Assembly (NCBI GenBank): GCA_903873905.1
Contig: CAIQQJ010000131.1
Span: 22,729-86,728 of the forward strand
DNA length: 64,000 nucleotides
Source: an uncultured Flavobacteriales bacterium
Lineage (GTDB): Bacteria > Bacteroidota > Bacteroidia > Palsa-965
Reading direction: 5' to 3'
This document shows, piece by piece, positions 20,852-42,301 of the stretch (positions within the stretch are counted from its first letter, which is position 1; each line of letters opens with the position of its first letter). The notes under the pieces are model-generated. The model saw only the letters and a list, made by a program, of their open reading frames with translations, was not told the origin of the DNA and ran no database searches. Position numbers and translations under genes: made by a program.

Positions 20852-20865
20852 ATGATTTAAATCAT
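20852..20865. promoter_or_regulatory. FNR/Crp-type box ATGATTTAAATCAT (TGAT-N4-ATCA core)
   Basis: Perfect 14-bp palindrome, 127 bp upstream of the minus-strand cytochrome c start and 320 bp upstream of the narK-like gene. Confidence 0.6.
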
Positions 20866-21186
20866 TTTCTAAGCTTTACTTGCCCTTGTAAGCCCTACTA
20901 ACGTTAGCATTTCCGTTTCACAGGAAAATCAAAAAAACATTCGAATTCATTTTTTCATATTTGACAAAATAAAAATGTCCCGTTTGGTATAATTGTTTCA
21001 TCCTATCTGATGTTTTTTTCCAAAAAATGGAATTGAAAAAATCTTTGAATTGGATATCAAAACAAAAACAAATTCACAAATTTCATTTTGTTCAAAATTC
21101 CTTTTCGTTTAAAAACACAACATGCCTTCTGTCATACTTTTTCTAGCTTAGGCTTATAGCTTTGTCCTATCATTCAACTCAGCACT

Positions 21187-22671
21187 ATGGAAGTTATTGT
21201 AAGTGGTAAGTCACATCGGATGCTTTTTCTGAATACACTTGCATTTACAGTTTGTTTTGCTGTTTGGTTGTTCAATGGTGTAATGGTTACTTTCCTCGTT
21301 GACAAAGGAGTTTTTAATTGGGGACCAGTTGAAATTGGTTGGCTACTCGGAATTCCCATTCTTACAGGTTCCATTTTTCGTTTGCCGATGGGAATGCTCA
21401 CGGATAAATTTGGCGGAAAATGGGTGTTCGGAATTCTGCTTTTATTTTGTTCGATACCAATGTATTTCTTAGGAAGTGCAAATAGTTTTTGGCAATTCGC
21501 ATTGTTGAGTTTTGGTTATGGAATGGCGGGCACTGCATTTGCCGTTGGAATCGCTTTCACTTCCGTTTGGTATCCAAGAAAATGGCAAGGAACTGCGCTT
21601 GGAATTTTCGGTGCTGGAAATGCAGGAGCTGCCATTACCACTTTGCTTGCTCCAACAATTTTAGCCAAGCTTACGCATAACGGAATTGATATTGACCAAT
21701 GGCGAACACTTCCCAAAATTTACGCCGTGGCATTGCTAAGCATGGCAATTATTTTTCTCCTTTTCGCTGTAAATAAAAAGCCTGAAAATCAGGGGAAAAA
21801 TTTCAAGCAAATGCTCTTGCCTTTAAAAAGCGTTCGCGTTTGGAGATTTGGCTTAGACTACTTTTTAGTGTTCGGATGTTTCGTCGCATTTTCACAATGG
21901 CTCGTTCCTTATTTTGTAAATGTTTATGAAGCCTCACTTGTAACTGCCGGACTCTTCGCCTCCATTTTCAGTTTACCTTCTGGCTTGATTCGTGCCCTGG
22001 GAGGATTTCTGTCCGACAAAATGGGCGCAAGAAGAGTGATGCGAATTGTTTTTATTACGACAATAGCAATCAGCGCACTATTGATAATTCCAAAAATGGA
22101 AATTCAATCGCCAGGAAAAGGAATTCAGGCTGCCAAGAGTGGAACAATAACTTTTTCTTCCGACTCTTTAATCAGGGTCGGCACAAAAGATTATCAGCTT
22201 GAACAAATAAAAACAACTTCAGATAATTTTGAAAAAACATTTTCGATACTTCCTGCAAAGGATAGTTGGCAAACACCCGTGGTAAAAGTTGGTGATAGCG
22301 TAATTAAAAAACAACTTCTTGCTGAAGGCACAACAAGAATTCATTTCCAGGCTAACATGTGGGTTTATGCAATTCTTGTAATGTTCATTGGGATTGCATG
22401 GGGAATTGGAAAAGCTGGAGTTTATAAATTCATTCCTGATTATTTTCCAAATGATATTGGTGTGGTGGGTGGAATGGTTGGTGTTATTGGAGGATTGGGT
22501 GGATTCTTCTGCCCTATCATATTCGGATATTTATTGGAATGGACTGGATTATGGACAAGCTGCTGGATGTTCATTCTATTTCTCGCTCTAATTTGTTTCA
22601 TTTGGAAGAAGCGCGTGGTAAGATCAATTGATCAGGATATTGATCCAATTGTGGTGGATGACATCGATTAG
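21187..22671 (+). CDS. MFS transporter, nitrate/nitrite porter (NarK/NasA)-like
   Basis: 494-aa ORF with 12 predicted TMs and a central hydrophilic insert. GIFGAGNAGAA resembles the NNP-family signature. Confidence 0.55.
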   Translation: MEVIVSGKSHRMLFLNTLAFTVCFAVWLFNGVMVTFLVDKGVFNWGPVEIGWLLGIPILTGSIFRLPMGMLTDKFGGKWVFGILLLFCSIPMYFLGSANSFWQFALLSFGYGMAGTAFAVGIAFTSVWYPRKWQGTALGIFGAGNAGAAITTLLAPTILAKLTHNGIDIDQWRTLPKIYAVALLSMAIIFLLFAVNKKPENQGKNFKQMLLPLKSVRVWRFGLDYFLVFGCFVAFSQWLVPYFVNVYEASLVTAGLFASIFSLPSGLIRALGGFLSDKMGARRVMRIVFITTIAISALLIIPKMEIQSPGKGIQAAKSGTITFSSDSLIRVGTKDYQLEQIKTTSDNFEKTFSILPAKDSWQTPVVKVGDSVIKKQLLAEGTTRIHFQANMWVYAILVMFIGIAWGIGKAGVYKFIPDYFPNDIGVVGGMVGVIGGLGGFFCPIIFGYLLEWTGLWTSCWMFILFLALICFIWKKRVVRSIDQDIDPIVVDDID

Positions 22672-22759
22672 AATAATGGATTTTTTACCTGCAATTTTCA
22701 AGTAGAAAATCTAAAAACCCAAAACAATTTTCGAATTTTCAAAACATGACCATGGTCAC

Positions 22760-22771
22760 TGATTTAAATCA
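22760..22771. promoter_or_regulatory. FNR/Crp-type box TGATTTAAATCA
   Basis: Same palindrome as at 20852 and 33222. Lies in the intergenic region between the narK-like gene and the FeS-subunit gene. Confidence 0.55.
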
Positions 22772-23000
22772 TATTTATGGATAATTCGCGTCATTTATTA
22801 AAAACCCAAAGTGTGTCATTTTTGAATTGACATAAACGTTGATTACGTCAATAAAAAAGCCAATTCTAGTCCGTTTTTCAAAACTTGTCATTGATTATAA
22901 TTTTTACACAGTTTGACAATCTTTGAGTTTTCTGGCCTCCGTTCTTTCAATCCATCATCCTATAAGTAAATTCACCTTTTCCACTCCAAAAGCTTTCCAC

Positions 23001-23090
23001 AAAAATGATTTACATCACTGAGTAAAATCATAATCCCGTCTGATTCGAGTCATAGTTTGAAAATAATAATGTAGGGAAATTTGGTCCGTT
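23001..23090 (+). promoter_or_regulatory. conserved about 90-nt promoter/leader element, copy A
   Basis: Roughly 75-80% identical to 29987-30076: ATGAT.TA.ATCACTGAG.A.AATCAT.ATC.CGTCTG...GAaTCATAGTTTGAAAAT.AT.AT..GT.GGAAATTTG.T.CGGTT. Confidence 0.6.
23006..23017. promoter_or_regulatory. FNR/Crp-type box TGATTTACATCA at the head of conserved leader element A
   Basis: TGAT-N4-ATCA, followed about 35 nt later by CATAGTTTG (Bacteroidota -7-like TAnnTTTG motif). 213 bp upstream of the FeS-subunit gene. Confidence 0.55.
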
Positions 23091-23229
23091 GATGCCGCTC
23101 AAGTGAAAATCCAATCAAAACTCTACAGTCTTTAACAAATCGAATTCAATATTTACGCTCATTAATTATCGCAATTCCATCACCGCATAAAATCAATAAC
23201 GTTTCTACCGAAAAGTAATATTTCTAATT

Positions 23230-24204
23230 ATGGAAGATCAAAACAAAAACAATGAAGACAACAAAACTCCTGAATCGAATGAGTCAGGCAGACGCGACTT
23301 CCTGAAATTTGGAGTGCTTGCGGCTGGGCTAACTGTAGCAGGTGTTGGTCTTCAGAAAGTTTTTTCTGGCGAAAAGAATTCCGACGAAAAAGCTTCTGGT
23401 GAGAAAGTGAAAGTCCTCACCACAGATGGAAAACTCATTGAAGTATATGCTGCGGATGTCAAAAAAGCCGATGCATGTTGTGTTCCTTCAGCGGAAGCGC
23501 GTCAAGGAATACCAGGGAAGAAATTTGTAATGGTGATCGATTTATCACGTTGCAAAGACGCTTTGAAATGTCAAAAATCTTGTGAAAAACATCACCAACT
23601 TCCTGAACAGGATAAATGGTTGAAGGTTTTCAAAATGCAAGAATCAGAAGAAACAGCTCCTTACTGGATGCCAAAACCATGTTTCCATTGTGACCACCCA
23701 CCTTGTGTTAAAGTTTGTCCTGTTGATGCAACTTTTAAAAGAACAGATGGAATAGTTTTAGTTGACAATGAACGTTGCATCGGTTGCAGATTCTGCATGG
23801 CAGCTTGTCCATATTCTGCCCGTGTATTTAACTGGTCAGAACCTGTAACTCCAGCTAGACATGAAAATGACACCTATTCTCCAGAAACAAGCACCCCAAG
23901 AAAAAAAGGTACTGTTGAGAAATGTGACTTCTGTCCAGATGTAATTAGACAAGGTAAACTTCCACATTGCGTTACTGCTTGTCCAAATGGTGTTTATTAT
24001 TTCGGTGATCAAAATGAGGACACCGTTACCAATGGAGACACAACAGTTCGCTTAAGCCAATTGCTAAGAGACAAAGCTGGTTACAGATATTTGGAATCTC
24101 TTGGAACCGAACCTAGCGTTTATTATCTCCCTGCTGCCAATCGAATATTCCCATTCAAAGACAGGGAAATTAAAGATGAAAAGAAGGAAGAATCCAAAAG
24201 CTAA
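23230..24204 (+). CDS. Tat-exported 4x[4Fe-4S] ferredoxin-type subunit (NrfC/PsrB/NosG-like)
   Basis: 324-aa ORF. RRDFLKFG twin-arginine signal. Four Cys clusters (CFHCDHPPCVKVCP, CIGCRFCMAACPY, CDFC...CVTACP, plus one atypical first cluster). Confidence 0.8.
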   Translation: MEDQNKNNEDNKTPESNESGRRDFLKFGVLAAGLTVAGVGLQKVFSGEKNSDEKASGEKVKVLTTDGKLIEVYAADVKKADACCVPSAEARQGIPGKKFVMVIDLSRCKDALKCQKSCEKHHQLPEQDKWLKVFKMQESEETAPYWMPKPCFHCDHPPCVKVCPVDATFKRTDGIVLVDNERCIGCRFCMAACPYSARVFNWSEPVTPARHENDTYSPETSTPRKKGTVEKCDFCPDVIRQGKLPHCVTACPNGVYYFGDQNEDTVTNGDTTVRLSQLLRDKAGYRYLESLGTEPSVYYLPAANRIFPFKDREIKDEKKEESKS

Positions 24205-24259
24205 GGGATTAAGCTGAAGAAAAATTAATTGTCAATTAATAAATGAATAGCTCACAAAT

Positions 24260-25639
24260 ATGAAAGACATAATAAAACCAAAAGATGACGCTGAAGCAAT
24301 ACAAATGTTGCATCAGTTTAACGAGGACTTGCTGCCAAAGAAATTTGGTAAGATTGGTGTGACTTGGACCATATTTCTTTGCCTTGTAATTGCAAATGGA
24401 CTTTTTTGTTATTACAAACAATTAAAATTTGGATTGAGTGTAACTGGTTTGGGAGATCAAGTTTCCTGGGGTATTTACATTTCCAATTTCGTTTTTTTCG
24501 TAGCGGTAAGTTTAGTTGGTTCCTTGATCACAGCTGTACTTTATTTGCTTAATGTAAATTGGCGATCACCATTAACGAGGATTGCAGAAGTAATTGCAGT
24601 GGCTTGTATCGTTTTCGCTGGCCTCATTATCATTGTTGATATGGGTCGTCCTGATCGAATTCTAAATATGTTTATTTATGGTAGAATTCAGTCGCCAATT
24701 GTTTGGGATGTAATAGTTGTAATGACTTATATGACAATAAGCGTTTTACTTCTTTATTTTCCTTTACTTCCTGGAATTGCTTTTTGCAGAGACCATCTCA
24801 AAAATATTCCTAAATGGCAAAAGTGGATGTATAAGTTTCTATCGTTTGGATGGAAATGGAATCCTGAACAATTCAAAATTGTAAAAAGGGCAATTACAAT
24901 TTTATCCGTTCTTATTATTCCTGTTGCGCTTAGTATTCACACCGTTACTTCCTGGTTGTTTGCTACAACATTCCGTCCGGGTTGGGATAGTACAAATTTT
25001 GGAGCCTACTTTGTTGCAGGTGCGTTTATGGTAGGAGCAGGTGCGGTAATTGCAGCCATGTATGTCCTCATAAAATTCTACCCACGTTACGATCAGTATA
25101 TCACAGATAAACATTTTGATCGTATGGGGAAACTTCTTGTACTTCTATCCTTGGTCTATATGTATTTTACCGTTAATGAATACATGATTCCCGGTTATAA
25201 AATGAAGGGTGAAGAAGCTGCCCATCTTACAGAATTATTTGTTGGAAAATATGCGCTAATGTTTTGGTCAGTTCAAATTTTCGGAATGATCATTCCTATT
25301 ATTCTTCTTATGTTCAAAAAATTCAGACGCCCTTTCCCAATGTTTGTCATTGCGATTTGTGTAATTGTTGGAGCGTGGTTTAAACGATTCCTTATTGTTA
25401 TTCCAACATTGCTTCACCCTTTCCTACCAATGCAGGAAATATCTGAATCAGCGAAATCTTATTCTCCAACCTATCCAGAGTGGTCCATCACCTTTGCTTC
25501 ATTGGCTGGCGCATTATTGATAATCACTGTCTTTATCCGCTATTTCCCTATTATTTCAATTTGGGAAGTTGCTGAAGAAAGAGGAATTGAACACGATGTT
25601 ATTTATAAACACTTAAACGAATTAAACGAAAAAGAATGA
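24260..25639 (+). CDS. NrfD/PsrC-family polytopic membrane quinol-interacting subunit
   Basis: 459-aa ORF with about 10 TM helices and an NrfD-like profile. Directly downstream of the FeS subunit. Confidence 0.8.
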   Translation: MKDIIKPKDDAEAIQMLHQFNEDLLPKKFGKIGVTWTIFLCLVIANGLFCYYKQLKFGLSVTGLGDQVSWGIYISNFVFFVAVSLVGSLITAVLYLLNVNWRSPLTRIAEVIAVACIVFAGLIIIVDMGRPDRILNMFIYGRIQSPIVWDVIVVMTYMTISVLLLYFPLLPGIAFCRDHLKNIPKWQKWMYKFLSFGWKWNPEQFKIVKRAITILSVLIIPVALSIHTVTSWLFATTFRPGWDSTNFGAYFVAGAFMVGAGAVIAAMYVLIKFYPRYDQYITDKHFDRMGKLLVLLSLVYMYFTVNEYMIPGYKMKGEEAAHLTELFVGKYALMFWSVQIFGMIIPIILLMFKKFRRPFPMFVIAICVIVGAWFKRFLIVIPTLLHPFLPMQEISESAKSYSPTYPEWSITFASLAGALLIITVFIRYFPIISIWEVAEERGIEHDVIYKHLNELNEKE

Positions 25640-26580
25640 AAAACTATCTAACATTTCAGATGCGGATATCTTCCCTTTTTTATTCGGCATTATCTTTGTT
25701 ATTCATTGGTGTATTCGTGCTAATGAGTAATAATGTAATGGCTCAAGACAAAAAGGATACGACCAAAATGTCTATTTCCATGAACGTGAGTTATAAAATT
25801 TCAGATGGAATAAAACACGTGAAAGTTCAAGCTACGCGAAAAGAAAATAAAAAAAATGTTTCCGTAGATAATGCAACTTCCCCTGTGTCTTTATACCTGA
25901 ATGAAGTAAAAGCTACAGATCCTTCAACTGGAGACGGACTTATCAGCAAACTTTTTCTTAATGAAGAAGGAGAAGTAACCTTTGATCTCCCTGCTAATTT
26001 TAATTCGCTCACATCTGGGTTACATGAATACACTTTCATTGCCCGTATGGAAGCAGATCCAATTTATCAAGAAGCAGAAGAACAAATTACCATTGCAGAT
26101 GCAAAAATCACTGTTGAATATTCCGGCAAGGATTCCATTAAAACGGCTACTGCTACACTAATGGAATGGAAAGACAGTGCGTACGTGCCTGTTCGTGATG
26201 CTGAATTGAAACTTTTCATTAAAAGAACATTCAGTTTATATCCTATTGGCGAAGAAGGAATTACTTCTGATTCACTCGGGCAAATAACATCGGAACTTCC
26301 TTTGGATATTCCTGGTGAGGCTGATGGCACAATAATTATTGTCGGCAGTGTGATCGATCATGAAACCTACGGAACTGTTGAAACAACAAATAAAGTGAAA
26401 TGGGCTGTTCTTCCAAAAGTCAATGCTGACATGGGTCGTACGCTTTGGTCTACAGGAAAAAATGCTCCTGTTCCATTAATTATTGCTTCTTGCACGATTA
26501 TTGCAATCATTTGGGGAACGATTATTTATCTAATTTTACAGCTGTTTAAAATCAGAAAAATCGGAAAACAAAAAGTGTAG
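25636..26580 (+). CDS. hypothetical periplasmic protein with N-terminal signal/anchor and C-terminal TM helix
   Basis: 314-aa ORF. Start overlaps the NrfD stop (ATGA), so translationally coupled. No cofactor motif recognised. Confidence 0.5.
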   Translation: MKNYLTFQMRISSLFYSALSLLFIGVFVLMSNNVMAQDKKDTTKMSISMNVSYKISDGIKHVKVQATRKENKKNVSVDNATSPVSLYLNEVKATDPSTGDGLISKLFLNEEGEVTFDLPANFNSLTSGLHEYTFIARMEADPIYQEAEEQITIADAKITVEYSGKDSIKTATATLMEWKDSAYVPVRDAELKLFIKRTFSLYPIGEEGITSDSLGQITSELPLDIPGEADGTIIIVGSVIDHETYGTVETTNKVKWAVLPKVNADMGRTLWSTGKNAPVPLIIASCTIIAIIWGTIIYLILQLFKIRKIGKQKV

Positions 26581-26617
26581 TAAACAATTTAACCATCAAA
26601 CTAAAAAAAACAAAATC

Positions 26618-27058
26618 ATGAAATCAAATCAAAAATCCGCAAATTTCGCCGCAATTACATCAGTTATTATTCTGTTTGCATTTGTTGGAATGTTAAGCAT
26701 GTCATTCGTTACCATTTCTACTACTGGTGATAAAAAACCATGGGTAGTTCCTGATAAAGATAAGGCAGTGAAAAACCCTGTTGCTTCCGATGCAACATCT
26801 ATTGCAGCTGGAAAAACTTTGTACACAAAACTTTGCAAATCATGTCATGGTGCTACTGGAAAAGGTGATGGTCCAAAATCAAAAGAATTGGAAACACCAA
26901 CAGGAAGCTTTCTGGATGCAACTTTTACTGCACAAACAGATGGAGAAGTTTTCTTCAAAGTAAGAAAAGGCAGAGATGATATGCCTGGTTTCTCTAAAGA
27001 AACAGAAGCTAATGATGTTTGGAATATCATTAACTATGTTCGCTCATTGAAAAAATAA
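26618..27058 (+). CDS. membrane-anchored class I c-type cytochrome (c6/c553-like)
   Basis: 146-aa ORF. N-terminal TM. CKSCHG heme motif. Distal Met region (DDMPGF). Confidence 0.75.
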   Translation: MKSNQKSANFAAITSVIILFAFVGMLSMSFVTISTTGDKKPWVVPDKDKAVKNPVASDATSIAAGKTLYTKLCKSCHGATGKGDGPKSKELETPTGSFLDATFTAQTDGEVFFKVRKGRDDMPGFSKETEANDVWNIINYVRSLKK

Positions 27059-27130
27059 TATTCTTGACTATTTTCCGAAGTGGAAAAATTAGGGAATAAT
27101 TAATTAAAGATTTTTTAACAAACGCTATAT

Positions 27131-28051
27131 ATGAAACTATCATTCTTTAATAGCACATTTAATGCAGCAAAAACATTTTTTGTTTTTGCTGCATTTGTGG
27201 CTACAACCGGTGTCGTACGTGCACAGGACGATTCAACCGCAACAGGCCCAGAACCTGTAACAAGAACTTTTCGCGGTCCTCAATTAATCAATATGCCTAC
27301 GAATGAAATCGTAGATGGTCTGACATTCGGAATTCAACACCGTTTCGGTCAGGTAATTGATAAGGACATTGCGTATGAGTTTTTGGGAATGGATCTTACA
27401 GCAAACATGCGTTTTTCACTTGGCTACCCTATCATTAAGGAAAGATTGATGGTCGAGCTAGGAAGAACCAAATTTGGAAAGAATATGGATCTAGAGGTAA
27501 AATGGCTTGCATTGAGACAGACAACAAAAAATGAAATGCCTATTTCCCTTACGATTTATGTGGATCCATCTTTATCGATGACAAGATTCCCAAAAGTTCC
27601 GAATTATGCATATTTTGGTGATAGCACCACAGTATTTAAATATACTGCTGCTTCTCGAATGGCATATAATTCTCAAATCATTATTTCAAGGAAGTTCAGC
27701 AAGAAATTCTCCTGCGAATTAGCTCCAACTTTTATTTACAGAAATTTGGTAGAGTCTTCAACTATTGATCATTATACAATGGCTTTGCAAGCTGGTGCAC
27801 GTTACAAGTTTTCAAGAGCTGGTTCTATTATGGTAGAATATGGTCATGCATTCAACAACAGAGACACCGCGACCGCCACTAAAACGGTTGATCCTCTTTC
27901 AATAGGAGTTGAATTCGGAACTGTAGCGCACGTATTTCAGATTGTAATGAGCTCTTCCAACAATCTTCTTGCTAGAGACATTTATACAACGAATGGTGTT
28001 GCTTATACCAAAGGACTTTTTGTAGGCTTCAATTTGAAACGTTTCTTTTAA
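27131..28051 (+). CDS. hypothetical outer-membrane beta-barrel protein
   Basis: 306-aa ORF. Signal peptide ending VRAQDD. Alternating amphipathic strands. C-terminal ...LKRFF, typical of OMP barrels. Confidence 0.45.
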   Translation: MKLSFFNSTFNAAKTFFVFAAFVATTGVVRAQDDSTATGPEPVTRTFRGPQLINMPTNEIVDGLTFGIQHRFGQVIDKDIAYEFLGMDLTANMRFSLGYPIIKERLMVELGRTKFGKNMDLEVKWLALRQTTKNEMPISLTIYVDPSLSMTRFPKVPNYAYFGDSTTVFKYTAASRMAYNSQIIISRKFSKKFSCELAPTFIYRNLVESSTIDHYTMALQAGARYKFSRAGSIMVEYGHAFNNRDTATATKTVDPLSIGVEFGTVAHVFQIVMSSSNNLLARDIYTTNGVAYTKGLFVGFNLKRFF

Positions 28052-28114
28052 CCACTAATAAATTCGAATCAATTCGAATTTGTCAATGAAAAAGAACCAA
28101 CTGAATAATGACTA

Positions 28115-28576
28115 ATGAAAATGAATCTCACTATGAAAAAATTAACTTTTAGCCCTATAAAGCTCATTTCTGGAATGACCGTGATCCTTGGATTATTGTT
28201 TGTTAGCTCCTGTAAAAAAGATGTTGGGCCAATTATCATACCTCCTGCAAATGCTCCTCCAGTGAGTTTTGCCTCTGAAATTCAACCAATCTTTACCACA
28301 AATTGTGCTGTAGGTGGTTGTCACGATGGTTCTGCATATGACCCAAATCTATCAGCTGGAGTAGCTTATGTTAATACTGTGAATGTTCCTGCTCCTTCTT
28401 ACGCTCCTTATTTTTTGATAAGACCAAGCAAGGCTGACAGCTCCGTTATTTATCATAAAATGTTGAACGATGATGCAGGTACTTATGGTGGCAAAATGCC
28501 TCCTGCTGGTGTTTTACCAGCAACTCAACTTGATCTATTGAAAACCTGGATCAACCAAGGTGCATTGAATAATTAA
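28115..28576 (+). CDS. lipoprotein with a Cys-X4-Cys-His motif (putative cytochrome-c-like / metal-binding domain)
   Basis: 153-aa ORF. Lipobox LFVSSC. IQPIFTTNCAVGGCHDG resembles planctomycete-cytochrome-C-type domains but with CX4CH spacing. Confidence 0.5.
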   Translation: MKMNLTMKKLTFSPIKLISGMTVILGLLFVSSCKKDVGPIIIPPANAPPVSFASEIQPIFTTNCAVGGCHDGSAYDPNLSAGVAYVNTVNVPAPSYAPYFLIRPSKADSSVIYHKMLNDDAGTYGGKMPPAGVLPATQLDLLKTWINQGALNN

Positions 28577-28584
28577 TTGCCTTC

Positions 28585-28626
28585 ACTACAACATTGATTT
28601 TTTTAATTAAAAATCAATGTTGTAGT
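28585..28626 (+). terminator. long perfect hairpin downstream of the CX4CH lipoprotein gene
   Basis: ACTACAACATTGATTTTT-TTAATT-AAAAATCAATGTTGTAGT: 18-bp perfect arms and no clear U-tract. Could be a terminator or an RNA-processing / regulatory structure. Confidence 0.5.
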
Positions 28627-28713
28627 ATAACACAACTATTTTTGTACCGTTCAGTGATAAATCAAAGTTTGTTTCAAAATTGAAAAAATAAATAAAAACT
28701 AAAAACTAAAAAC

Positions 28714-29490
28714 ATGAGAAAAATTACACTCTTTGCTATTTCGAGTATTATTTTGGTTGTGGCTATGTCCAGTAGCGCTGGAAAAGCTGGTAAGACAGGT
28801 TCTCCAGGTGAAAGCACCTGTATGGGATGCCATGGTGACTTTCCAATAAATACAGGTGGAGGAACTATTGCGATTACCTCTAATATCCCTGGCTCTTATA
28901 TTGCTGGAACCACCTATACAGTCAGCGTTACAGTAAGCCAAACTGCAATGCCTTTGTTTGGTTTCGATTTCGAGGCACTCAATTCGGCAAATGCCAATGC
29001 TGGTACCCTTGCTGCTGGTAGCGACTCGCATATTATGATATCAGGCGGAAAAAATAACATGGTCCATTTGACAGATGGTGGTCTAACCACCGGTACTCAT
29101 ACTTTCACCTTCAACTGGACAGCTCCAAGTGCAGGTGCTGGAACAGTTACATTCTATGCTTCCGGAATTTGTGCAGATAATAGTGGAGATGAAACGGGTG
29201 ACTATGTGCATACTACATCAGTGGCTATTCCTGAAAACCCATTGAGTGTTGCTCAAAATTCTTCTGAGCCAACGCTTAATGTTTACCCAACTGTTTCTAA
29301 CGGAACTTTCACAATTCAGAATAATGTAAATTATGATTTGTCAATTTACAACGTTACTGGAGAAGAAGTTTTCGCAAAAACTGTTGATGCTAATCTTGAA
29401 ACAGTGAATCTGAATGTACCAACAGGAATGTATTTTGTGTACATCAAATCAGAAAACAAAACAACATTGAAGAAAATCATTGTTCAGTAA
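28714..29490 (+). CDS. T9SS-secreted surface protein with N-terminal CxxCH-containing domain and Por_Secre_tail C-terminal sorting domain
   Basis: 258-aa ORF. Signal peptide. CMGCHG motif. C-terminal roughly 75 aa (LNVYPTVSNGTFTI...MYFVYIKSENKTTLKKIIVQ) match the T9SS CTD pattern. Confidence 0.75.
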   Translation: MRKITLFAISSIILVVAMSSSAGKAGKTGSPGESTCMGCHGDFPINTGGGTIAITSNIPGSYIAGTTYTVSVTVSQTAMPLFGFDFEALNSANANAGTLAAGSDSHIMISGGKNNMVHLTDGGLTTGTHTFTFNWTAPSAGAGTVTFYASGICADNSGDETGDYVHTTSVAIPENPLSVAQNSSEPTLNVYPTVSNGTFTIQNNVNYDLSIYNVTGEEVFAKTVDANLETVNLNVPTGMYFVYIKSENKTTLKKIIVQ

Positions 29491-30076: not shown

Positions 30077-30136
30077 TATTAATTCAAAAGTCAATCAAAA
30101 TAAATCAAAAATCAATCTGTTTAAACTCTACCAATT

Positions 30137-33221: not shown

Positions 33222-33235
33222 ATGATTTAAATCAT
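33222..33235. promoter_or_regulatory. FNR/Crp-type box ATGATTTAAATCAT
   Basis: Third copy of the identical 14-bp palindrome. Lies between the T9SS gene terminator and the small minus-strand ORF / RIC gene. Confidence 0.5.
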
Positions 33236-37695: not shown

Positions 37696-38415
37696 CTAAC
37701 TTTTTTGACTTGCCAACTCTCTCAATTCAGCTTCTTTCTTGACAAGAATTGTTTTTTTATCTAATTCGATCAGATTCATTTCTTGAAGTTGGAACAAACT
37801 GCGAATAGCTGTTTCATACGTTGTGCCTGCAATATTCGCAATATCTTTTCTACACAAGGTAAAACTCAATTTGGTTTTTTCCGTTTCATGATAACCAAAA
37901 GCATCTACCAACATAATGATGATGTCTGCCACTCTCAATTTCACATCATGGTGAATCATGTTCTTCATCCGCTCTTCTGATTCATGCAACTCCGTAGCGA
38001 AAAAATTAATCATGAACATTCCAAATTCAGGATTTGCTTTTATTAATTTCAGGAAAATCTCAATCGGAATAAATATGGTTGTACATTCCGTCAAAGCCAC
38101 AGCCGAAACCGTAAAGTTGGGATGTGCCATTGCACGATGACCAAGAATTTTGCCCTCTGCCGCCAACCTTAAAATACGTTCATTGTTTTTGTCATACCGT
38201 GAAACAACTTTTGCCTTTCCACTGATCAAAAGGTAAACTCCGTCCATCACATCCCCCTCATTAAAAATTCGCTCACCAACCTTAAAAGACTGATTACGCT
38301 TATATAAATTAATTAACGGAATCCATTCCGATGAACAATATTTTGGAAAAAACAATTCCCAAAAAACAGATTTCTTGCTATTAATGTTTTTCACTCGTTC
38401 GTCTTTAGTATTCAT
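37696..38415 (-). CDS. Crp/Fnr-family transcriptional regulator
   Basis: About 239 aa from the ATG at 38413-38415 (the ORF-track start at 38427 is a TTG). cNMP-binding-like beta-roll (GDVMDGVYLLISGKAKV). C-terminal HTH (RKDIANIAGTTYETAIRSL). Confidence 0.75.
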   Translation of the reverse strand: MNTKDERVKNINSKKSVFWELFFPKYCSSEWIPLINLYKRNQSFKVGERIFNEGDVMDGVYLLISGKAKVVSRYDKNNERILRLAAEGKILGHRAMAHPNFTVSAVALTECTTIFIPIEIFLKLIKANPEFGMFMINFFATELHESEERMKNMIHHDVKLRVADIIIMLVDAFGYHETEKTKLSFTLCRKDIANIAGTTYETAIRSLFQLQEMNLIELDKKTILVKKEAELRELASQKS

Positions 38416-38438: not shown

Positions 38439-38477
38439 AGATCAAATTTATCGATTCCCGTAAACATAAAAACTGAC

Positions 38478-38504
38478 CTAGATCACACTTTTTGTGCGAT
38501 CTAG
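38478..38504. promoter_or_regulatory. imperfect 11-bp-arm palindrome CTAGATCACAC-N5-GTGCGATCTAG
   Basis: One mismatch between the arms. Located in the divergent intergenic region between two Crp/FNR-family regulator genes. Confidence 0.4.
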
Positions 38505-38905
38505 CTTAGTTAATCGATATTATGATTTTCAAACACCCCCCAATAAATTGAAAAAAACCGAGCTTTATGAAGGACCTAAGATTAGGAATTGGGCATGTTT
38601 TACATAGCTCTAATTGTGCCTTCCTAATTGTCCACTTATTGCCTCGTTTGAAAATTCCGCATTGCTAATTCAGTAATAATTTTGGTAATATAAACGCATA
38701 AGCAACCGACTTAAACATACTGCCTATTCCTGTTTTTCAACTCTCAATTCTAGAAAGGTTTTTTCAATCTTCCAATAGTTTTTTCCAATACATGTGTTGG
38801 CAAAAAACACGTGTCAAATTCATTGTGCCACTCACCCTAAACATGACACAGGTCATACGTAAGTATGATTATTGACCATATTTTTGAAATACCAAAAAAA
38901 TAGCC

Positions 38906-39655
38906 ATGCACAGCAAACTGAAGAAACACGAGGCCCCAAACTGCGAAAATTGTACAGAACGAGGAAGTTCAATTTTTTGCGATTTGCACGCCACGGATTT
39001 GAATAAGCTCTCTGAACACAAGGCTTATAACACTTACAAAAAAGGGCAATCTATTTTTCTTGAAGGAAATCAACCACAAGGCTTATTCTGTATTTATTCG
39101 GGAAAAGTTAAAATTCACAAGTTTGGTGATGATGGAAAAGAGCAGATCGTACGATTTGCCAGAAAAGGAAATGTACTTGGATACCGCGCATTATTGAGTG
39201 GTGGTGCCTATTTCGCAACTGCAACAGCCTTAGAAGAAACAACAGTTTGCTTTTTTCCGAAAGCAATTTATATGCAGGTCCTTTTGGCCAATCCAGACTT
39301 ATGCTTGCAAACTATCAAACTTCTTGCTTCAGATTTGAAAATGGCGGAACATTTGATGACCAACATGGCACAGAAACATGTGAGAGAACGAATTGCAGAA
39401 GCATTGATTTTATTAATAGAATATTACGGTCTAGAAGATGACAATGTGACGATCAATACTATTCTTACTCGGGAAGATATCGGAAATATGGTTGGAACAA
39501 CAACGGAAACTTCCATCCGAGTATTATCGGATTTCAATAAAGAAAAAATTATTCGACTTGCAGGGAAGAGAATTGGAATTCTTAATCTCGAACAACTTGA
39601 AAAGGTTGCGAATGTTTCTTTGAAACCAAATTCTGATCAAAAACCCAATAAATAA
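38906..39655 (+). CDS. FNR-like Crp/Fnr-family regulator with N-terminal Cys cluster
   Basis: 249-aa ORF. N-terminal CENCTERGSSIFC (C-x2-C-x8-C, as in the FNR [4Fe-4S] ligands). cNMP-like domain. HTH (REDIGNMVGTTTETSIRVL). Confidence 0.75.
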   Translation: MHSKLKKHEAPNCENCTERGSSIFCDLHATDLNKLSEHKAYNTYKKGQSIFLEGNQPQGLFCIYSGKVKIHKFGDDGKEQIVRFARKGNVLGYRALLSGGAYFATATALEETTVCFFPKAIYMQVLLANPDLCLQTIKLLASDLKMAEHLMTNMAQKHVRERIAEALILLIEYYGLEDDNVTINTILTREDIGNMVGTTTETSIRVLSDFNKEKIIRLAGKRIGILNLEQLEKVANVSLKPNSDQKPNK

Positions 39656-39671
39656 TTCGAATCACTATTGC

Positions 39672-39683
39672 TGATTCGGATCA
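39672..39683. promoter_or_regulatory. FNR/Crp-type box TGATTCGGATCA
   Basis: TGAT-N4-ATCA centred about 65 bp upstream of the third Crp/FNR regulator gene start (39743). Confidence 0.5.
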
Positions 39684-39742
39684 TTGTTTCCATTTAACAT
39701 CCAATCTATTTTTGGTTTAGTATTAAAAGTATTTGAAATAAA

Positions 39743-40450
39743 ATGGAGAGAAACAATTTACCAAAACTGGGTTGTTCCAATTGTAAAATCCGGAATATTT
39801 CTCTCTTCGCAAACGGATTGTCAGACTCTCATTTTGAATTATTTGCTGAAAAGAAAGAATTGGTTTTCAAAAAAGGAGAAAAACTAATTTCTGATGGAGA
39901 TGAATTCAAAGGCTTTTTTTGCATCCAAAGCGGAACAATAAAAATTTACAAGCCAATCAATAACAAGAATGATTTTATTCTCTGGTTTGCCAAACCTGGT
40001 GAGTCCATTGGTATAGATTCTTTTTTCAATAATGAAAATTATCAATACTCCGCTTCGGCAACAGGTATTGTGAAGGCCTGTTTTTTCAGTGCCCCAAAAA
40101 TAAATGAGCTGATGCAAAATGGATCAGTTACATACATGCGGCTGATGGAATATTTTTGTGAGCGAATTGACTTCATAGAAAAAAGAATTACAAGCATTGC
40201 CCAAAAAAAAACAAAGTCACATTTGGCAGAACTTCTTATTGCCCTACGAAATGATGAAACGGCGGATGAAAAAGAAACAAATATTGATTACAGCATAAAG
40301 GATTTAGCAAACATTATCGGTACAACCCAAAACTATTTATACAAAATTTCCTCTGAACTCATAAAGGAAAAAATCATTTCATTCGAAAGGAAGAAGCTGA
40401 AAATTCTGGATTTGGAAAAATTGTCGATTCTTGCAAAAGGAGCAAAATAA
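39743..40450 (+). CDS. FNR-like Crp/Fnr-family regulator with N-terminal Cys pair
   Basis: 235-aa ORF. N-terminal GCSNCKIRNISLF. cNMP-like domain. HTH (IKDLANIIGTTQNYLYKIS). Confidence 0.7.
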   Translation: MERNNLPKLGCSNCKIRNISLFANGLSDSHFELFAEKKELVFKKGEKLISDGDEFKGFFCIQSGTIKIYKPINNKNDFILWFAKPGESIGIDSFFNNENYQYSASATGIVKACFFSAPKINELMQNGSVTYMRLMEYFCERIDFIEKRITSIAQKKTKSHLAELLIALRNDETADEKETNIDYSIKDLANIIGTTQNYLYKISSELIKEKIISFERKKLKILDLEKLSILAKGAK

Positions 40451-40541
40451 TACTCCTATTTTTGTAATAGACGAAACTGTCACTTTTTATGAAATCATTT
40501 ATTCCATATCTCGTTTTTTAAACCCGACAAATAGGATTTTT

Positions 40542-40964
40542 ATGAGTTTAAAAACGAAGCGTCTTATTTTTGGAATTCTTTTTTCCTTTTTCTTCCTGTA
40601 CACAATTGCAGTAGATACAATCGGAACATCCAAAGACGATGGTGAGCGTTGGCTTACTGAAAAAGCAAAAAAAGGAAAACTGGTTTTTCAGGAATACAAT
40701 TGCACTGCATGTCACCAGATTTATGGACTTGGCGGCTATATGGGGCCTGATCTGACCAACGTAATTTCTACGCCTGGAAAAGGACCGATTTACGCGAAAG
40801 CATTCTTGCAAGCGGGCTCACAACGAATGCCTAATTTCCAATTGTCAGAAGAAAAAATGGAAGAATTGATAGAATTCCTAACTTACATTGACAAAACTGG
40901 CATTTCACCAGTAAAAAAATTCAAGACTAATTTTGACGGAACGATAAGTGAAGCAACAAAATGA
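40542..40964 (+). CDS. norC: nitric oxide reductase subunit C (membrane-anchored mono-heme cytochrome c)
   Basis: About 140 aa from MSLKTKRL (the ORF-track start at 40431 would overlap the upstream regulator). N-terminal TM. CTACH heme motif. Stop overlaps the norB start. Confidence 0.75.
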   Translation: MSLKTKRLIFGILFSFFFLYTIAVDTIGTSKDDGERWLTEKAKKGKLVFQEYNCTACHQIYGLGGYMGPDLTNVISTPGKGPIYAKAFLQAGSQRMPNFQLSEEKMEELIEFLTYIDKTGISPVKKFKTNFDGTISEATK

Positions 40965-42292
40965 AAAAAGAAATAGGAATAGTTTTTATCGGGCTTGCAT
41001 TCATTTCACTTTTGGGCGGACTTTTTTTCGGAAGCCTAAGTTCATTTCAATTTGTCATTCCCGGTTTTCTTGATTCATTCCCATTTGTAAAAAGCAGGCC
41101 ACTTCACGTATCACTTGTTGTGGCGTGGATTTTTCTCAGCGCCATAGGTGGTATTTATTATTTTCTCCCAAAGCATGTCAAACTGGAATTATACTCAGAT
41201 AAACTTGCACGAATTCATTTCTGGATTTTTCTAATTACAGGAGTGCTGATTCTCACTTGTTATTTCATTGGTAAATTTGGTGGAAGAGAATATTGGGAAT
41301 TCCCTCCGATACTTTCCATTCCCATTTTTATTTCATGGATTCTTTTTGGAATAAATTATTTCAAAACCATTGTTGGAAAAATTTACCATTGGCCCATTTA
41401 TTTGTGGATGTGGGCAACTGGAATTTTCTTTTTCTTCTTCACATTTACAGAAGCCTACCTTTGGGTATTCCCATTTTTCAGAGACCATATTGTGCGTGAC
41501 ATTACCACACAATGGAAAGCCTACGGAGCATTAGTCGGTTCATGGAATATGCTTGTTTATGGAACGGCTTTCTTTATCATGGAGCGAATCAGTGGAGATA
41601 AAACAGTTGCAAAATCAAAATTGTCATTTGCAATGTATTTTCTTGGACTAACCAATTTGCTTTTTGGTTGGGCGCACCATATTTACATTGTTCCTTCTGC
41701 AGCATGGATTAGGAACGTTGCTTATTTAGTGAGCATGACCGAATTAATCATTCTTTCAAAAATAATCTGGAACTGGAGAAAATCATTGACAGAATCGGTT
41801 AAAAAATTCCATATCCTACCTTTCCGTTTTCTGGTAGCCTCCGACATTTGGATTTTCATTAACCTCGTTCTCGCACTTGCCATTTCCATTCCTGCTGTAA
41901 ATATTTTCACACATGGAACGCACATAACCGTTGCGCATGCGATGGGAAGTACGATTGGAATCAATACTATGGTTTTGCTCGCATCCTGTTTTTATATTGT
42001 GCAGGACATTACCAAAACCCAGTTCAATTCACTGCAACAAAAAATAGTGAAAGCAGGTTTTTGGATTACCAATGTTTCCCTCCTAACATTCTTCATCAGT
42101 CTGATTTTTGCCGGTGCTGAAAAAGGGCAGATGGTCATCGAGGATAAATTGACCTTTCAGGAAATCATGCAACATATTTCGCCCTACCTCACGGTCTTTG
42201 CGTTTGCAGGAATTGGGATTTTTATTGGACTCCTGATGGTCATCTTTCCTGCATTAAGAGCAATATTCCGATATCTAAGGGGAAATGCATGA
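40961..42292 (+). CDS. norB: nitric oxide reductase large subunit, heme-copper oxidase superfamily (cNOR NorB)
   Basis: 443-aa ORF with 12 TMs. Conserved His ligands (WAHHIY, HGTHITVAHAMG) as in NorB. Confidence 0.8.
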   Translation: MKKEIGIVFIGLAFISLLGGLFFGSLSSFQFVIPGFLDSFPFVKSRPLHVSLVVAWIFLSAIGGIYYFLPKHVKLELYSDKLARIHFWIFLITGVLILTCYFIGKFGGREYWEFPPILSIPIFISWILFGINYFKTIVGKIYHWPIYLWMWATGIFFFFFTFTEAYLWVFPFFRDHIVRDITTQWKAYGALVGSWNMLVYGTAFFIMERISGDKTVAKSKLSFAMYFLGLTNLLFGWAHHIYIVPSAAWIRNVAYLVSMTELIILSKIIWNWRKSLTESVKKFHILPFRFLVASDIWIFINLVLALAISIPAVNIFTHGTHITVAHAMGSTIGINTMVLLASCFYIVQDITKTQFNSLQQKIVKAGFWITNVSLLTFFISLIFAGAEKGQMVIEDKLTFQEIMQHISPYLTVFAFAGIGIFIGLLMVIFPALRAIFRYLRGNA

Positions 42293-42301
42293 TTACGATC
42301 A
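42290..42301. promoter_or_regulatory. FNR/Crp-type box TGATTACGATCA
   Basis: TGAT-N4-ATCA overlapping the norB stop, 164 bp upstream of the proline dehydrogenase gene. Confidence 0.35.

Follow-up and report, generated by a model that had tools for sequence, protein, structure and literature searches.

Genes and boxes of the island

The window, i.e. the whole 64,000-nt stretch of DNA analysed here from an uncultured Bacteroidota bacterium, carries an uncharacterised respiratory module under the predicted control of short palindromic boxes (Table 1). The FeS/NrfD operon starts with genes for a TAT-signal DsrO-like 4Fe-4S protein, an NrfD/DsrP-like membrane protein and a 314-aa membrane-anchored beta-sandwich protein, followed by those for a cytochrome c, a DUF5777 barrel, a 153-aa protein and a choice-of-anchor-V CxxCH protein with a T9SS tail. 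The N-terminal domain of the SprB-repeat surface protein contains a CxxxCH motif and is similar to that of the 28714 protein. The last gene of the Reg3 operon encodes a haem-copper-oxidase subunit I annotated in the source as nitric oxide reductase (NOR) subunit B. Three Crp/Fnr genes (Reg1, Reg2 and Reg3) reside in the same island, as the first-pass annotation had proposed, and each has a box in its promoter.

Table 1. Predicted box-bearing promoters, their putative target genes and the regulator genes in the window.
Feature	Position	Strand	Boxes	-7 element and remarks
Promoter region, saccharopine-dehydrogenase-like gene (1030-2175)	2200..2242	-	TGACGGTGATCA 2231-2242	-7-like TTACTTTG 2200-2207; offset 35
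Promoter region, 2-hydroxyacyl-CoA-dehydratase-like operon (6862-8025 and downstream genes)	8098..8140	-	TGATGTAGGTCA 8129-8140	TTACTTTG 8098-8105; offset 35
Promoter, peptidase-U32 gene (12295-13539)	12199..12241	+	TGATATAAATCA 12199-12210 (perfect)	GAAATTTG 12234-12241
Promoter, cytochrome c (20039-20731)	20802..20864	-	20853-20864 (perfect, ~-61.5); TGAGGCGAATCA 20833-20844 (~-41.5); 20816-20827 (perfect, ~-24.5)	GAAATTTG 20802-20809
Distal promoter, FeS/NrfD operon	22747..22824	+	A TGACCATGGTCA 22747-22758; B TGATTTAAATCA 22760-22771 (~-63.5); C TAATTCGCGTCA 22782-22793 (~-41.5)	CATTTTTG 22817-22824
Proximal promoter, FeS/NrfD operon	23005..23093	+	A TGATTTACATCA 23006-23017 (~-76.5); B TGAGTAAAATCA 23019-23030 (~-63.5); C TGATTCGAGTCA 23041-23052 (~-41.5)	GAAATTTG 23076-23083
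FeS/NrfD operon	23230..29490	+		Seven genes
Second copy of the duplicated promoter	29991..30079	+	A 29992-30003 (perfect); B 30005-30016; C 30027-30038	GAAATTTG 30062-30069
SprB-repeat surface protein gene	30137..32959	+		T9SS tail
Orphan box	33223..33234		Perfect; 14-mer 33222-33235	
Reg1	37696..38415	-		Crp/Fnr family; likely start ATG 38413-38415
Reg1 promoter	38443..38485	-	TGATCTAGGTCA 38474-38485	TAAATTTG 38443-38450
Reg2 promoter	38844..38886	+	TGACACAGGTCA 38844-38855	TATTTTTG 38879-38886
Reg2	38906..39655	+		FNR-like; C13, C16, C25, C62, C115; recognition helix TETSIR
Promoter, Reg3-cyt c-NOR operon	39672..39714	+	TGATTCGGATCA 39672-39683	TATTTTTG 39707-39714
Reg3-cyt c-NOR operon	39743..42292	+		Reg3, cytochrome c, haem-copper-oxidase subunit I
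Orphan box	42290..42301		TGATTACGATCA	Overlaps NOR stop codon

The first-pass annotation had listed seven exact TGAT-N4-ATCA boxes. All of them are present, two of the coordinates (20852 and 33222) denoting the start of a 14-mer and the other five that of a 12-mer, but the list was incomplete. The window contains 12 matches, nine intergenic and three coding (14799, 16709 and 59937), and those at 12199 and 20816 had been overlooked. The description of all seven as intergenic needs correction for a single box, at 42290, whose TGA is the stop codon of gene 40961-42292. Moreover, the 14-mer ATGATTTAAATCAT, previously counted in three identical copies, occurs exactly only at 20852 and 33222; the copy at 22759 reads CTGATTTAAATCAT and shares the 12-mer core with the other two. 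Boxes do precede the cytochrome c, FeS/NrfD, T9SS surface protein and regulator genes as had been claimed, whereas a search for a box-promoter of the NarK-like gene found none.

The proximal FeS/NrfD promoter belongs to a duplicated pair of 89 nt, the two copies of which are 76% identical. An inverted repeat with 18-nt arms (38471-38511) overlaps the Reg1 promoter. Neither strand offered a -7 partner for the box at 33223, which is located 445 nt upstream of a RIC/ScdA-type gene (33668-34618) and is separated from it by a small convergent membrane ORF. For the box at 42290 there is likewise no promoter partner; the conserved -7 element of proline dehydrogenase, TACTTTTG (~42395-42402), places it at about -111.5.

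Motif, phasing and conservation of the boxes

Intergenic DNA accounts for 11.5% of the window (7.4 kb). Dinucleotide shuffles of the intergenic segments yielded an expectation of 0.39 matches to TGAT-N4-ATCA as compared to the nine observed (Poisson P ~4e-10). The excess over chance is thus stronger than had been claimed, even though the chance expectation for the whole window, previously given as about one per 64 kb, amounts to 3.7 in this AT-rich sequence. Enrichment was restricted to a 4-nt spacer, and among non-homopolymer 4-N4-4 palindromes TGAT alone was enriched in intergenic DNA. Zero intergenic box matches occur in the 17.7 kb that flank the window in this genome. Most matches lie outside genes: 9 of the 12 window matches, 15 of the 18 window matches to the relaxed form TGAY-N4-RTCA (the other three being coding) and 62 of the 89 boxes in related loci are intergenic, the last count being approximate owing to the crude ORF caller used for these loci.

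The boxes are inverted repeats with a TGA-N6-TCA core in which the TGA and TCA positions are invariant. In 46 phased promoters, an A precedes TGA in 29 and a T follows TCA in 43. Judged by sequence, the wider motif A-TGA-Y-N4-R-TCA-T with its half-sites TGAY and RTCA is the predicted functional motif. The earlier designation as FNR-type boxes applies to the core but not to the flanks, where the outer T...A of the 14-bp FNR consensus is replaced by A...T, giving the variant ATGAY-N4-RTCAT. The G at the third position of the CRP box (TGTGA-N6-TCACA) is missing as well, the boxes reading (A)TGAY.

Promoters recognized by the Bacteroidetes sigma factor sigma-ABfr have a -7 element, TAnnTTTG, approx. 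4-5 nt upstream of the transcription start with its T at -12 (PMC6847099). Either TAnnTTTG or nAnnTTTG occurs at a fixed distance from the boxes, exactly 35 bp from their first base. As the T is at -12, the box centre lies at -41.5 and that of the second box, often found 22 bp further upstream, at -63.5, all starts being predicted from the -7 element. When the window and the related loci (911 kb) were taken together, the box-to-TA distance peaked sharply at 35 and 57; with at most one mismatch, these offsets scored 15 each versus a mean of 1.3 per offset. Box-to-box spacing peaked at exactly 22 bp (69 pairs versus about 2.2 per distance), and TGAY-N4-RTCA followed by N23 and nAnnTTTG was found in the related loci at 30 intergenic sites versus one coding site. 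Many -7 elements of the window read GAAATTTG or TTACTTTG, not TAnnTTTG. The box at -41.5 is imperfect in several promoters, and perfect palindromes are positioned further upstream (23006 and 29992, ~-76.5) or at about -24.5 (20816).

The proposed comparison with related genomes was positive, since the same boxes were found upstream of orthologous genes in more than 60 related loci. Box-bearing orthologues comprise the FeS/NrfD module, T9SS haem-motif proteins, cyt c-NOR, nos, RIC and nirK, and hemA is also among the box-bearing genes of relatives; the boxes lie upstream of the FeS operon (11 cases), T9SS haem-motif proteins, Crp/Fnr genes and cytochrome c. Relatives as a rule have a second site, at a distance of exactly 22 bp. 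In a close relative (L062), the half-sites are kept and the spacers changed: the Reg2-promoter box reads TGATATTAGTCA, the counterpart of the 42290 box TGATTCCTGTCA, and the 39672 box and its -7 element retain their spacing. The linkage of the nor genes suggested earlier is borne out by the Reg3-cyt c-NOR promoter at 39672, which is conserved in L062, L066 and L067. In the latter two, boxes precede cyt c-NOR, nos, Trx-RIC and Crp genes, and in the cultured Solitalea lacus they are located between nirK and a Reg2 homologue. At the one NOR locus checked that has Rrf2 in place of the Crp/Fnr genes (L063), no box was found upstream of NOR.

The regulators and their predicted mode of action

Reg2 is composed of cNMP-binding-like and Crp-type HTH domains (Pfam PF00027, PF13545 and PF00325). 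Its best NCBIfam match is Fnr, with 106 bits under the 228-bit cutoff, and it aligns with Aliivibrio FNR (5cvr) from the N-terminal Cys region onward. Two regulators with FNR-like Cys clusters had been postulated. Only Reg2 has the full set of three N-terminal and one central cysteine (C13, C16, C25 and C115), whereas Reg3 has a CxxC and one central Cys (C113) and Reg1, although of Crp/Fnr fold, has no N-terminal cluster. Across 48 Reg2 homologues, C13, C16, C62 and C115 never vary and C25 shows a conservation of at least 90%, making Reg2 a candidate O2 sensor. The best PDB match of all three regulators is 2gau, presumably a structure from P. gingivalis.

The recognition helices of Reg1 (YETAIR) and Reg2 have retained Glu and Arg at the positions corresponding to CRP-181 and CRP-185. 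The Arg of CRP at position 180 is absent, being replaced by Y in Reg1, T in Reg2 and Q in Reg3. Glu and Arg in combination with a non-Arg residue at 180 predict an FNR-type TGA half-site. The E--SR motif of FNR is altered in Reg2 (T-E-T-S-I-R), where Ser212 is exchanged for Ile, in keeping with a box that has lost its outer T. Reg1 also lacks this Ser; regulators adjoining the module in relatives do carry E-x-x-S-R. The divergent Reg3 helix QNYLYK is unlikely to read the same box.

Judging from these features, the boxes are probably operators at which CRP/FNR-family transcription factors, encoded by genes of the island itself, would bind as dimers. They combine the TGA-N6-TCA repeat with centring at -41.5 of predicted starts, an intergenic position and conservation upstream of orthologues, as FNR-type operators do, and the earlier proposal of a CRP/FNR regulon gains support from enrichment, phasing to the -7 element, conservation and the boxes at the three Crp/Fnr promoters. 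They appear to be sites of an anaerobic regulator that turn on a 40-kb stretch of genes for anaerobic respiration; switches of this type are familiar but had not been reported from this group. Besides the three regulators, the regulon predicted for the window comprises the cytochrome c and the FeS/NrfD/cytochrome c module, together with the T9SS haem-motif surface proteins that belong to it; the Reg3-cyt c-NOR operon, the U32-family gene and the 2-hydroxyacyl-CoA-dehydratase-type operon complete it.

From the observed enrichment, phasing and conservation of the boxes and the features of the regulators, we infer binding, activation and the nature of the signal as follows. Reg2, as the most likely primary regulator, would bind the box sequence ATGAYNNNNRTCAT. 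A regulator on the -41.5 box, which at most target promoters would take the place of the -33 element, may recruit RNA polymerase as a class-II-type activator, and a further dimer abutting on the first would occupy the box at -63.5. The conserved FNR-like cysteines imply that Reg2 would bind DNA only with an intact Fe-S cluster, i.e. at low oxygen. Reg1 and Reg3, each with a box-bearing promoter, may form a cascade adding a second signal, probably NO. Gene content and cysteines are thus what lets us infer O2/NO responsiveness of the regulon.

It is conceivable, if rather unlikely, that the boxes are bound mainly by Reg1 as an NO- or haem-sensing DNR/NnrR-like paralogue, or by Reg3, instead of Reg2, and convey nitrosative signals, not oxygen; half-site variants (ATCA or GTCA) and overlapping A and B sites would then partition the promoters between paralogues. 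The targets are in line with this, as NOR is among them and RIC, nos and nirK are in relatives, and so are the Glu and Arg retained by the cluster-less Reg1 and the distribution of half-sites, GTCA occurring mostly at -41.5 and ATCA at distal sites. Multi-paralogue FnrL/Dnr cascades provide a precedent (PMC5398030). However, the regulon contains genes without a link to NO (the 2-hydroxyacyl-CoA dehydratase operon and the U32 gene, and hemA in relatives), cysteine-conserving Reg2-type regulators accompany the boxes in L062, L067 and Solitalea, and in PDB matches Reg1 appears no nearer to DNR (3dkw, E = 2.4e-6) than to other family members, the NtcA, CRP and FNR chains matching better. Control by an NO-sensing paralogue and by Reg2 are mutually compatible.

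Repressor operators that block RNA polymerase under one condition, as opposed to recruiting it, are improbable. Within the best cytochrome c promoter, box 20816 does fall in the interval from -33 to -7, and at its position of -24.5 repression is expected; the A and B sites are 13 bp apart, making joint filling by activating dimers impossible. The dominant -41.5/-63.5 arrangement, however, is upstream of the core promoter and in place of the -33 element, the classic geometry of an activator, and -7 elements frequently fall short of the consensus, as promoters that depend on an activator would be expected to do. Virtually no credence is left for palindromes arising by chance from AT-rich intergenic composition or as remnants of repeats or mobile elements, even though the spacers too are A/T-rich and two sites fall within the 89-nt duplicated segment. 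Such an origin is refuted by the spacer-specific enrichment, the shuffles, the phasing and the intergenic box-promoter counts in the related loci; in addition, the three identical 12-mers have no similarity in their flanks, the phased motif is conserved in distant genomes and zero Rfam matches were obtained.

Comparison with known Crp/Fnr systems

The E. coli FNR box, TTGAT-N4-ATCAA, is centred at -41.5 at class II promoters. The boxes described here, if operators of Reg2, would resemble it in the TGA-N6-TCA inverted repeat with a 4-nt variable centre, in the -41.5 position relative to the predicted start, in a regulator with a cNMP-like domain, a Crp HTH, an N-terminal Cys cluster and one central Cys, and in anaerobic respiration genes as targets. 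In contrast to FNR, the outer bases are A...T instead of T...A, position 4/9 is Y/R, the helix reads E-T-S-I-R instead of E-T-I-S-R, the Cys spacing is CX2CX8C and the Bacteroidetes -7 element TAnnTTTG takes the place of -10/-35. The strict 22-bp phasing of dimer sites that is the rule in relatives is a further difference.

The HcpR1-type motif TTGAC-N4-GTCAA (Rodionov et al. 2005, PMC1274295) is similar to the boxes in the GTCA half-site predominating at -41.5, with TGAC-N4-GTCA at 22747 and 38844, but differs in its outer bases, and the FNR cysteines of Reg2 are absent from HcpR proteins. A scan of window genes yielded no hcp gene. HcpR, PgRsp and CrpPg of Porphyromonas gingivalis (PMC12750200, PMC12040651) are CRP/FNR-superfamily regulators from the same phylum. 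Unlike the system proposed here, HcpR is a haem/NO sensor with hcp as its sole target, and these reports describe no denitrification regulon, tandem boxes or Fe-S cysteines for the three proteins.

The arrangement of the island resembles the denitrification cascades Anr/Dnr of Pseudomonas, FnrP/NNR of Paracoccus and FnrL with three Dnr proteins of Dinoroseobacter shibae (PMC5398030). These belong to another phylum; the likeness seen is one of arrangement, and the nor-adjoining paralogue Reg3 departs from them in its divergent helix. Shared with the island are several Crp/Fnr paralogues in or near denitrification genes, an FNR-type box before each of them, the combination of an O2 sensor, for which Reg2 is the candidate here, with Cys-less paralogues, and nor, nos and nir as targets, here predicted ones.

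Abundance and intergenic location of the boxes

The exact pattern TGAT-N4-ATCA occurs 12 times in the window, compared with 3.7 matches expected from dinucleotide shuffles. The first-pass annotation had listed seven boxes and anticipated about one per 64 kb. All seven were recovered in our pattern search, but the intergenic boxes at 12199 and 20816 had been overlooked and the expectation was too low. Nine of the 12 boxes are intergenic, located in the 11.5% of the window that lies between genes according to a map compiled from ORFs, Pfam and NCBIfam. Shuffling of the intergenic segments alone yielded 0.39 expected boxes against these nine (P ~4e-10). An equal frequency in coding sequence genome-wide had been named as an argument against a regulon; in the window, the boxes are concentrated in intergenic DNA. 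Box 42290 is not purely intergenic: its TGA doubles as the stop of gene 40961-42292. The 14-mer ATGATTTAAATCAT, which like TGATTCGAGTCA and TGACACAGGTCA represents a box sequence, was said to occur in three identical copies; there are two (20852 and 33222), and the copy at 22759 starts with C.

The excess is tied to the 4-nt spacer only, and TGAT is the sole non-homopolymer 4-N4-4 palindrome with intergenic enrichment in the window. The wider form TGAY-N4-RTCA matches 18 window sites, 15 of them intergenic and three coding, the latter identical to those of the TGAT form. A logo derived from 46 phased promoters of the window and its relatives reads A-TGA-Y-N4-R-TCA-T, with A before TGA in 29 and T after TCA in 43 cases. 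Compared with the FNR consensus TTGAT-N4-ATCAA, the outer bases are reversed.

The sites mark one island, from 2.2 to 42.3 kb of the window, in this uncultured Bacteroidota MAG. No intergenic matches were found in 17.7 kb of flanking DNA from the same genome (GCA_026391895.1, L068 and L069). The island comprises a 2-hydroxyacyl-CoA-dehydratase-type cluster, a molybdenum hydroxylase with a U32-family gene, a cytochrome c with a NarK-like transporter, the FeS operon, an SprB-repeat T9SS protein, a RIC/ScdA-type operon, three Crp/Fnr regulator genes (Reg1 to Reg3), and a cytochrome c with a haem-copper oxidase annotated as NorB by the sources (NOR). The FeS operon encodes a TAT-signal DsrO-like FeS protein, an NrfD/DsrP-like protein, a 314-aa protein, a cytochrome c, DUF5777, a 153-aa protein and a choice-of-anchor-V CxxCH protein with a T9SS tail. 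The N-terminal domain of the latter, named choice-of-anchor V by NCBIfam, is related to that of the SprB-repeat protein; in each protein the domain has one haem-type motif, and haem binding is putative. The strong hairpin 3′ of the SprB/T9SS gene is probably its intrinsic terminator. Between the orphan box 33223 and the RIC gene there is a small ORF, whose product (about 61 aa when counted from the ATG) is predicted to be a membrane protein with two helices. The ORF is convergent with any rightward transcript and has its own TATTTTTG element. The RIC/DUF2249 operon also encodes a 429-aa membrane protein with a weak COX1 match (E = 2e-7, below the Pfam cutoff), which may be a divergent haem-copper-oxidase-like protein. 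No riboswitches or sRNAs turned up in the long intergenic regions when the window was scanned with Rfam and for tRNAs; one tRNA-Phe was the sole Rfam/ARAGORN match.

Coordinates of boxes, promoters and further features in the window
Feature	Position	Strand	Gene or remark
Promoter with box 2231	2200-2242	-	Saccharopine-dehydrogenase-like gene
Promoter with box 8129	8098-8140	-	HGD-D/BcrAD 2-hydroxyacyl-CoA-dehydratase-type operon (oxygen-sensitive enzymes)
Phased box	12199		U32 gene
Phased box	20833	-	Cytochrome c; promoter boxes at about -61.5, -41.5 and -24.5
Distal FeS triple (A, B, C)	22747, 22760, 22782		C phased
Proximal FeS triple (A, B, C)	23006, 23019, 23041		C phased
SprB/T9SS triple (A, B, C)	29992, 30005, 30027		C phased
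Phased box	38474	-	Reg1
Phased box	38844		Reg2
Phased box	39672		Reg3-cytochrome c-NOR
TGAT-N4-ATCA in coding sequence	14799, 16709, 59937
Sites added by TGAY-N4-RTCA	2231, 8129, 22747, 23041, 38474, 38844
Duplicated segment	23005-23093; 29991-30079		FeS operon; SprB/T9SS gene
T9SS-tailed proteins	28714-29490; 30137-32959		CMGCH; CWTGCH
Hairpin	33012-33050		18-nt arms, 94% complementary, then T-run
Small ORF	33369-33554	-	Weak box-like sequence at 33604
429-aa membrane protein	35431-36720
Inverted repeat	38471-38511		18-nt arms, 83% complementary, 5-nt loop
Reg3	39743-40450		5029-5739 in L062
Proline dehydrogenase (ProDH)	42465-43664		3′ of cytochrome c-NOR
tRNA-Phe (GAA)	46831-46906	-

Promoter geometry and its conservation

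Bacteroidetes promoters are characterized by a -7 element, TAnnTTTG, with a T at -12 (PMC6847099). Ten intergenic window boxes (at most two mismatches) are followed by nAnnTTTG at an offset of 34-36, and in nine cases the offset, counted from the box's first base, is exactly 35 bp. Written as a search pattern, this layout would be ATGAYNNNNRTCAT followed by N22 and TAnnTTTG. When offsets from 12 to 79 were scanned, counts peaked at 35 and 57 in the window and in 911 kb of related loci, with 15 occurrences each against a mean of 1.3 per offset (at most one mismatch, TAnnTTTG). Thus, the box centres fall at -41.5 and -63.5 of the predicted start sites. Box-to-box distances in the related loci peak at exactly 22 bp (69 pairs versus about 2.2 per distance). 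In E. coli, the class II activators CRP and FNR sit at -41.5. By analogy, the geometry is that of a putative class II CRP/FNR-type activator in place of a weak -33 element, next to which a second dimer would directly adjoin the first.

Three window promoters share the triple layout A-13 bp-B-22 bp-C, in which A is near -76.5, B at -63.5 and C, an imperfect box, at -41.5. Several perfect palindromes on the first-pass list are not the -41.5 sites. The 13-bp overlap of A and B was absent from the relatives when box-to-box distances in the related loci were compared. The proximal FeS promoter and the SprB/T9SS promoter are the two copies of an 89-nt duplication (76% identical), with three boxes and the -7 element in register. 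The minus-strand promoters containing boxes 2231 and 8129 have a common unusual -7-like TTACTTTG at offset 35. The cytochrome c, FeS/NrfD, T9SS and regulator genes, which had been described as preceded by boxes, have phased promoters; for the NarK-like gene, also assigned a box, no box-dependent promoter was found within 300 nt of its start. No convincing -7 partner or second box accompanies box 42290 or, on either strand, box 33223. Between the divergently oriented Reg1 and Reg2 genes, the box of the Reg1 promoter overlaps with an inverted repeat.

In the related loci, 62 of 89 TGAT-N4-ATCA matches are intergenic, compared with an intergenic share of 13.7% (approximate counts from crude ORF calling), and TGAY-N4-RTCA followed by N23 and nAnnTTTG occurs in 30 intergenic versus one coding position. 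Of the TGAT-N4-ATCA boxes, 11 precede the FeS operon, and others are found in front of genes for T9SS CxxCH proteins, Crp/Fnr regulators, the cytochrome c, and EB_dh haem and YceI-like lipoproteins. Conservation upstream of orthologous genes, suggested as a check, was observed in loci including L062, L066 and L067. The close relative L062 (NOR 93% identical) retains boxes at Reg2 (TGATATTAGTCA), at Reg3 (TGATTCGTATCA, with its -7 element) and at the 42290 site (TGATTCCTGTCA); half-sites are unchanged compared with the window, whereas spacers have drifted. In L066, TGATATTAATCA and TACATTTG lie upstream of cytochrome c-NOR. L067 has phased boxes upstream of cytochrome c-NOR and Trx-RIC and more boxes before the nos cluster, Crp genes and 4HBT. 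The 20.7 kb examined from cultured Solitalea lacus contain three matches, two of which sit between nirK and the Reg2 homologue, and a hemA-like gene has a phased box in Gaetbulibacter and Yeosuana. In L063, L064 and L065 (NOR 75-76% identical), an Rrf2-family (NsrR-like) regulator precedes cytochrome c-NOR in place of the Crp/Fnr genes, which looks like a regulator swap; no box was found upstream of NOR in L063, the locus of this type that was scanned. A fused FeS-NrfD protein and a molybdopterin oxidoreductase follow cytochrome c-NOR in these three loci.

The proline dehydrogenase gene lies directly 3′ of cytochrome c-NOR in several lineages (L062, L066, L067 and two contigs). In L066 and L067 it is separated from them by just 17-32 nt, which suggests that ProDH and nitric oxide reductase are co-transcribed. 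These neighbourhoods also contain a beta-eliminating lyase, 4HBT and RNR.

Candidate regulators and competing explanations

Reg1, Reg2 and Reg3 each consist of a cNMP-binding-like domain and a Crp-type HTH. Three Crp/Fnr regulators, two with FNR-like cysteine clusters, had been reported; the complete set was confirmed for Reg2, Reg3 has only CxxC and C113, and Reg1 lacks a cluster. The Reg2 cysteines (C13-x2-C16-x8-C25 and C115) align with the cysteine region of Aliivibrio FNR. Among 48 homologues (51-88% identity), C13, C16, C62 and C115 never vary, conservation of C25 reaches at least 90%, and the helix T-E-T-x-I-R is retained. Orthologues are found in L062 (93% identical) and L067 (45%). 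The recognition helix of Reg1 is Y-E-T-A-I-R. That of Reg3, T-T-Q-N-Y-L-Y-K, lacks the Glu and Arg of the family, also in L062; judged from this sequence, Reg3 probably reads another DNA motif or none. CRP residues 180, 181 and 185 are specificity positions (Rodionov et al.). Reg1 and Reg2 have a residue other than Arg at the first of these, Glu at the second and Arg at the third, a combination that predicts an FNR-type TGA half-site for both. Both have Ile at the Ser position of E--SR; Reg2 has the cysteine set and departs from the exact E--SR signature. In E. coli FNR, this Ser contacts the outer T of the box, and its loss from the helix fits the loss of the outer T from the box. Regulators adjoining the module in relatives have CxxCx4C and E-x-x-S-R.

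A chance origin of the boxes is excluded by their intergenic enrichment over shuffles, the specificity for the 4-nt spacer, the phasing and the conserved phased pattern. Dispersal by a repeat or mobile element was likewise rejected, as flanks are common only to the 23005 and 29991 promoters and three identical 12-mers share none. The observation is real and significant, and the earlier interpretation is supported with the corrections described. That the boxes serve as operators for an activator is likely; that they act as repressor operators is very improbable, as the promoter geometry speaks against it. At low O2, Fe-S-loaded Reg2 dimers would bind ATGAY-N4-RTCAT at -41.5, often also at -63.5, and activate sigma-ABfr promoters with weak or absent -33 and often sub-consensus -7 elements. 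Reg1 and Reg3, themselves box-controlled, would add a second input such as NO, a scheme familiar from the FnrL/Dnr and Anr/Dnr cascades (PMC5398030). We regard the assignment of signals, low O2 with a second input such as NO, as moderately probable. A DNR-like paralogue as the main binder is unlikely, and it would be compatible with the activation scheme centred on Reg2. Helix sequences fit the boxes for both Reg1 and Reg2, not for Reg3, and resolve nothing finer.

The FeS/NrfD module and comparison with known systems

The 153-aa protein, DUF5777, FeS, NrfD, the 314-aa protein and cytochrome c form a conserved module, found in 61 loci via homologues of the 314-aa protein. Its carriers belong to Chitinophagales, Sphingobacteriales and Flavobacteriia, including Lutibacter, Yeosuana, Gaetbulibacter and Algibacter. 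In L001-L061, CxxCH choice-of-anchor-V/T9SS, EB_dh or YceI lipoproteins often accompany the module, and the FeS-NrfD-314aa-cytochrome c unit is often duplicated in tandem. The AlphaFold model of the 314-aa protein (pLDDT 80) predicts two Ig-like sandwiches between terminal TM helices. In a Foldseek search of the PDB, this model matched only Ig or transglutaminase C-domain folds of a generic kind, which gave no functional clue. Pfam and NCBIfam gave no match for the 615-aa, 314-aa and 153-aa proteins, and we found no papers on DUF5777 or on the FeS/NrfD/T9SS module.

A joint reading, which we offer as speculative and rather doubtful, is a Bacteroidota-wide anaerobic switch: two FNR-like dimers would sit side by side at -41.5 and -63.5, with a spacing of exactly 22 bp, and drive sigma-ABfr promoters without a -33 element. 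The main conserved target would be the module, as a new electron route that starts at quinol and leads to denitrification enzymes or to the cell surface. It would run through a TAT-exported FeS protein, an NrfD-type quinol-interacting membrane protein, a membrane-anchored double beta-sandwich, cytochrome c, a DUF5777 outer-membrane barrel and surface-exposed CxxCH/EB_dh/YceI lipoproteins or T9SS-secreted equivalents. If true, the module would be a new path for respiratory electrons in Bacteroidota. The novelty of the regulon is modest; the co-regulated module and the strict 22-bp tandem architecture are the most interesting thread.

Among the N2O and NO reducers of soils, sediments and groundwater, Bacteroidota are abundant. 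To our knowledge, their switch to anaerobic respiration is essentially uncharted. Our literature search found neither FNR-type control of denitrification nor FNR boxes described for denitrifiers of this phylum. A survey of CRP/FNR regulons at metagenome scale saw no evidence for such denitrification control in Flavobacteriales, Saprospiraceae and Ignavibacteria MAGs (PMC8510549). The analysis provides a concrete, testable operator, ATGAY-N4-RTCAT, which lies 35 bp ahead of TAnnTTTG and is often accompanied by a second copy at 22 bp; with it, anaerobic regulons can be predicted throughout the phylum. It points to a likely oxygen sensor, an FNR-like subfamily whose cysteines are well conserved, and flags a widespread respiratory module of uncharacterised function that shares its regulation with nor, nos and nirK. 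The prediction is open to experiment in cultured carriers (Solitalea lacus CP091740.1, Yeosuana aromativorans JCM 12862, Gaetbulibacter and Algibacter, including A. agarivorans).

The window system works like an FNR/DNR-type denitrification regulon. Its box shares repeat structure, position and conservation with the FNR operator but differs from it in the outer bases. The system is best placed within CRP/FNR control, as a new, Bacteroidota-specific member with variant features.
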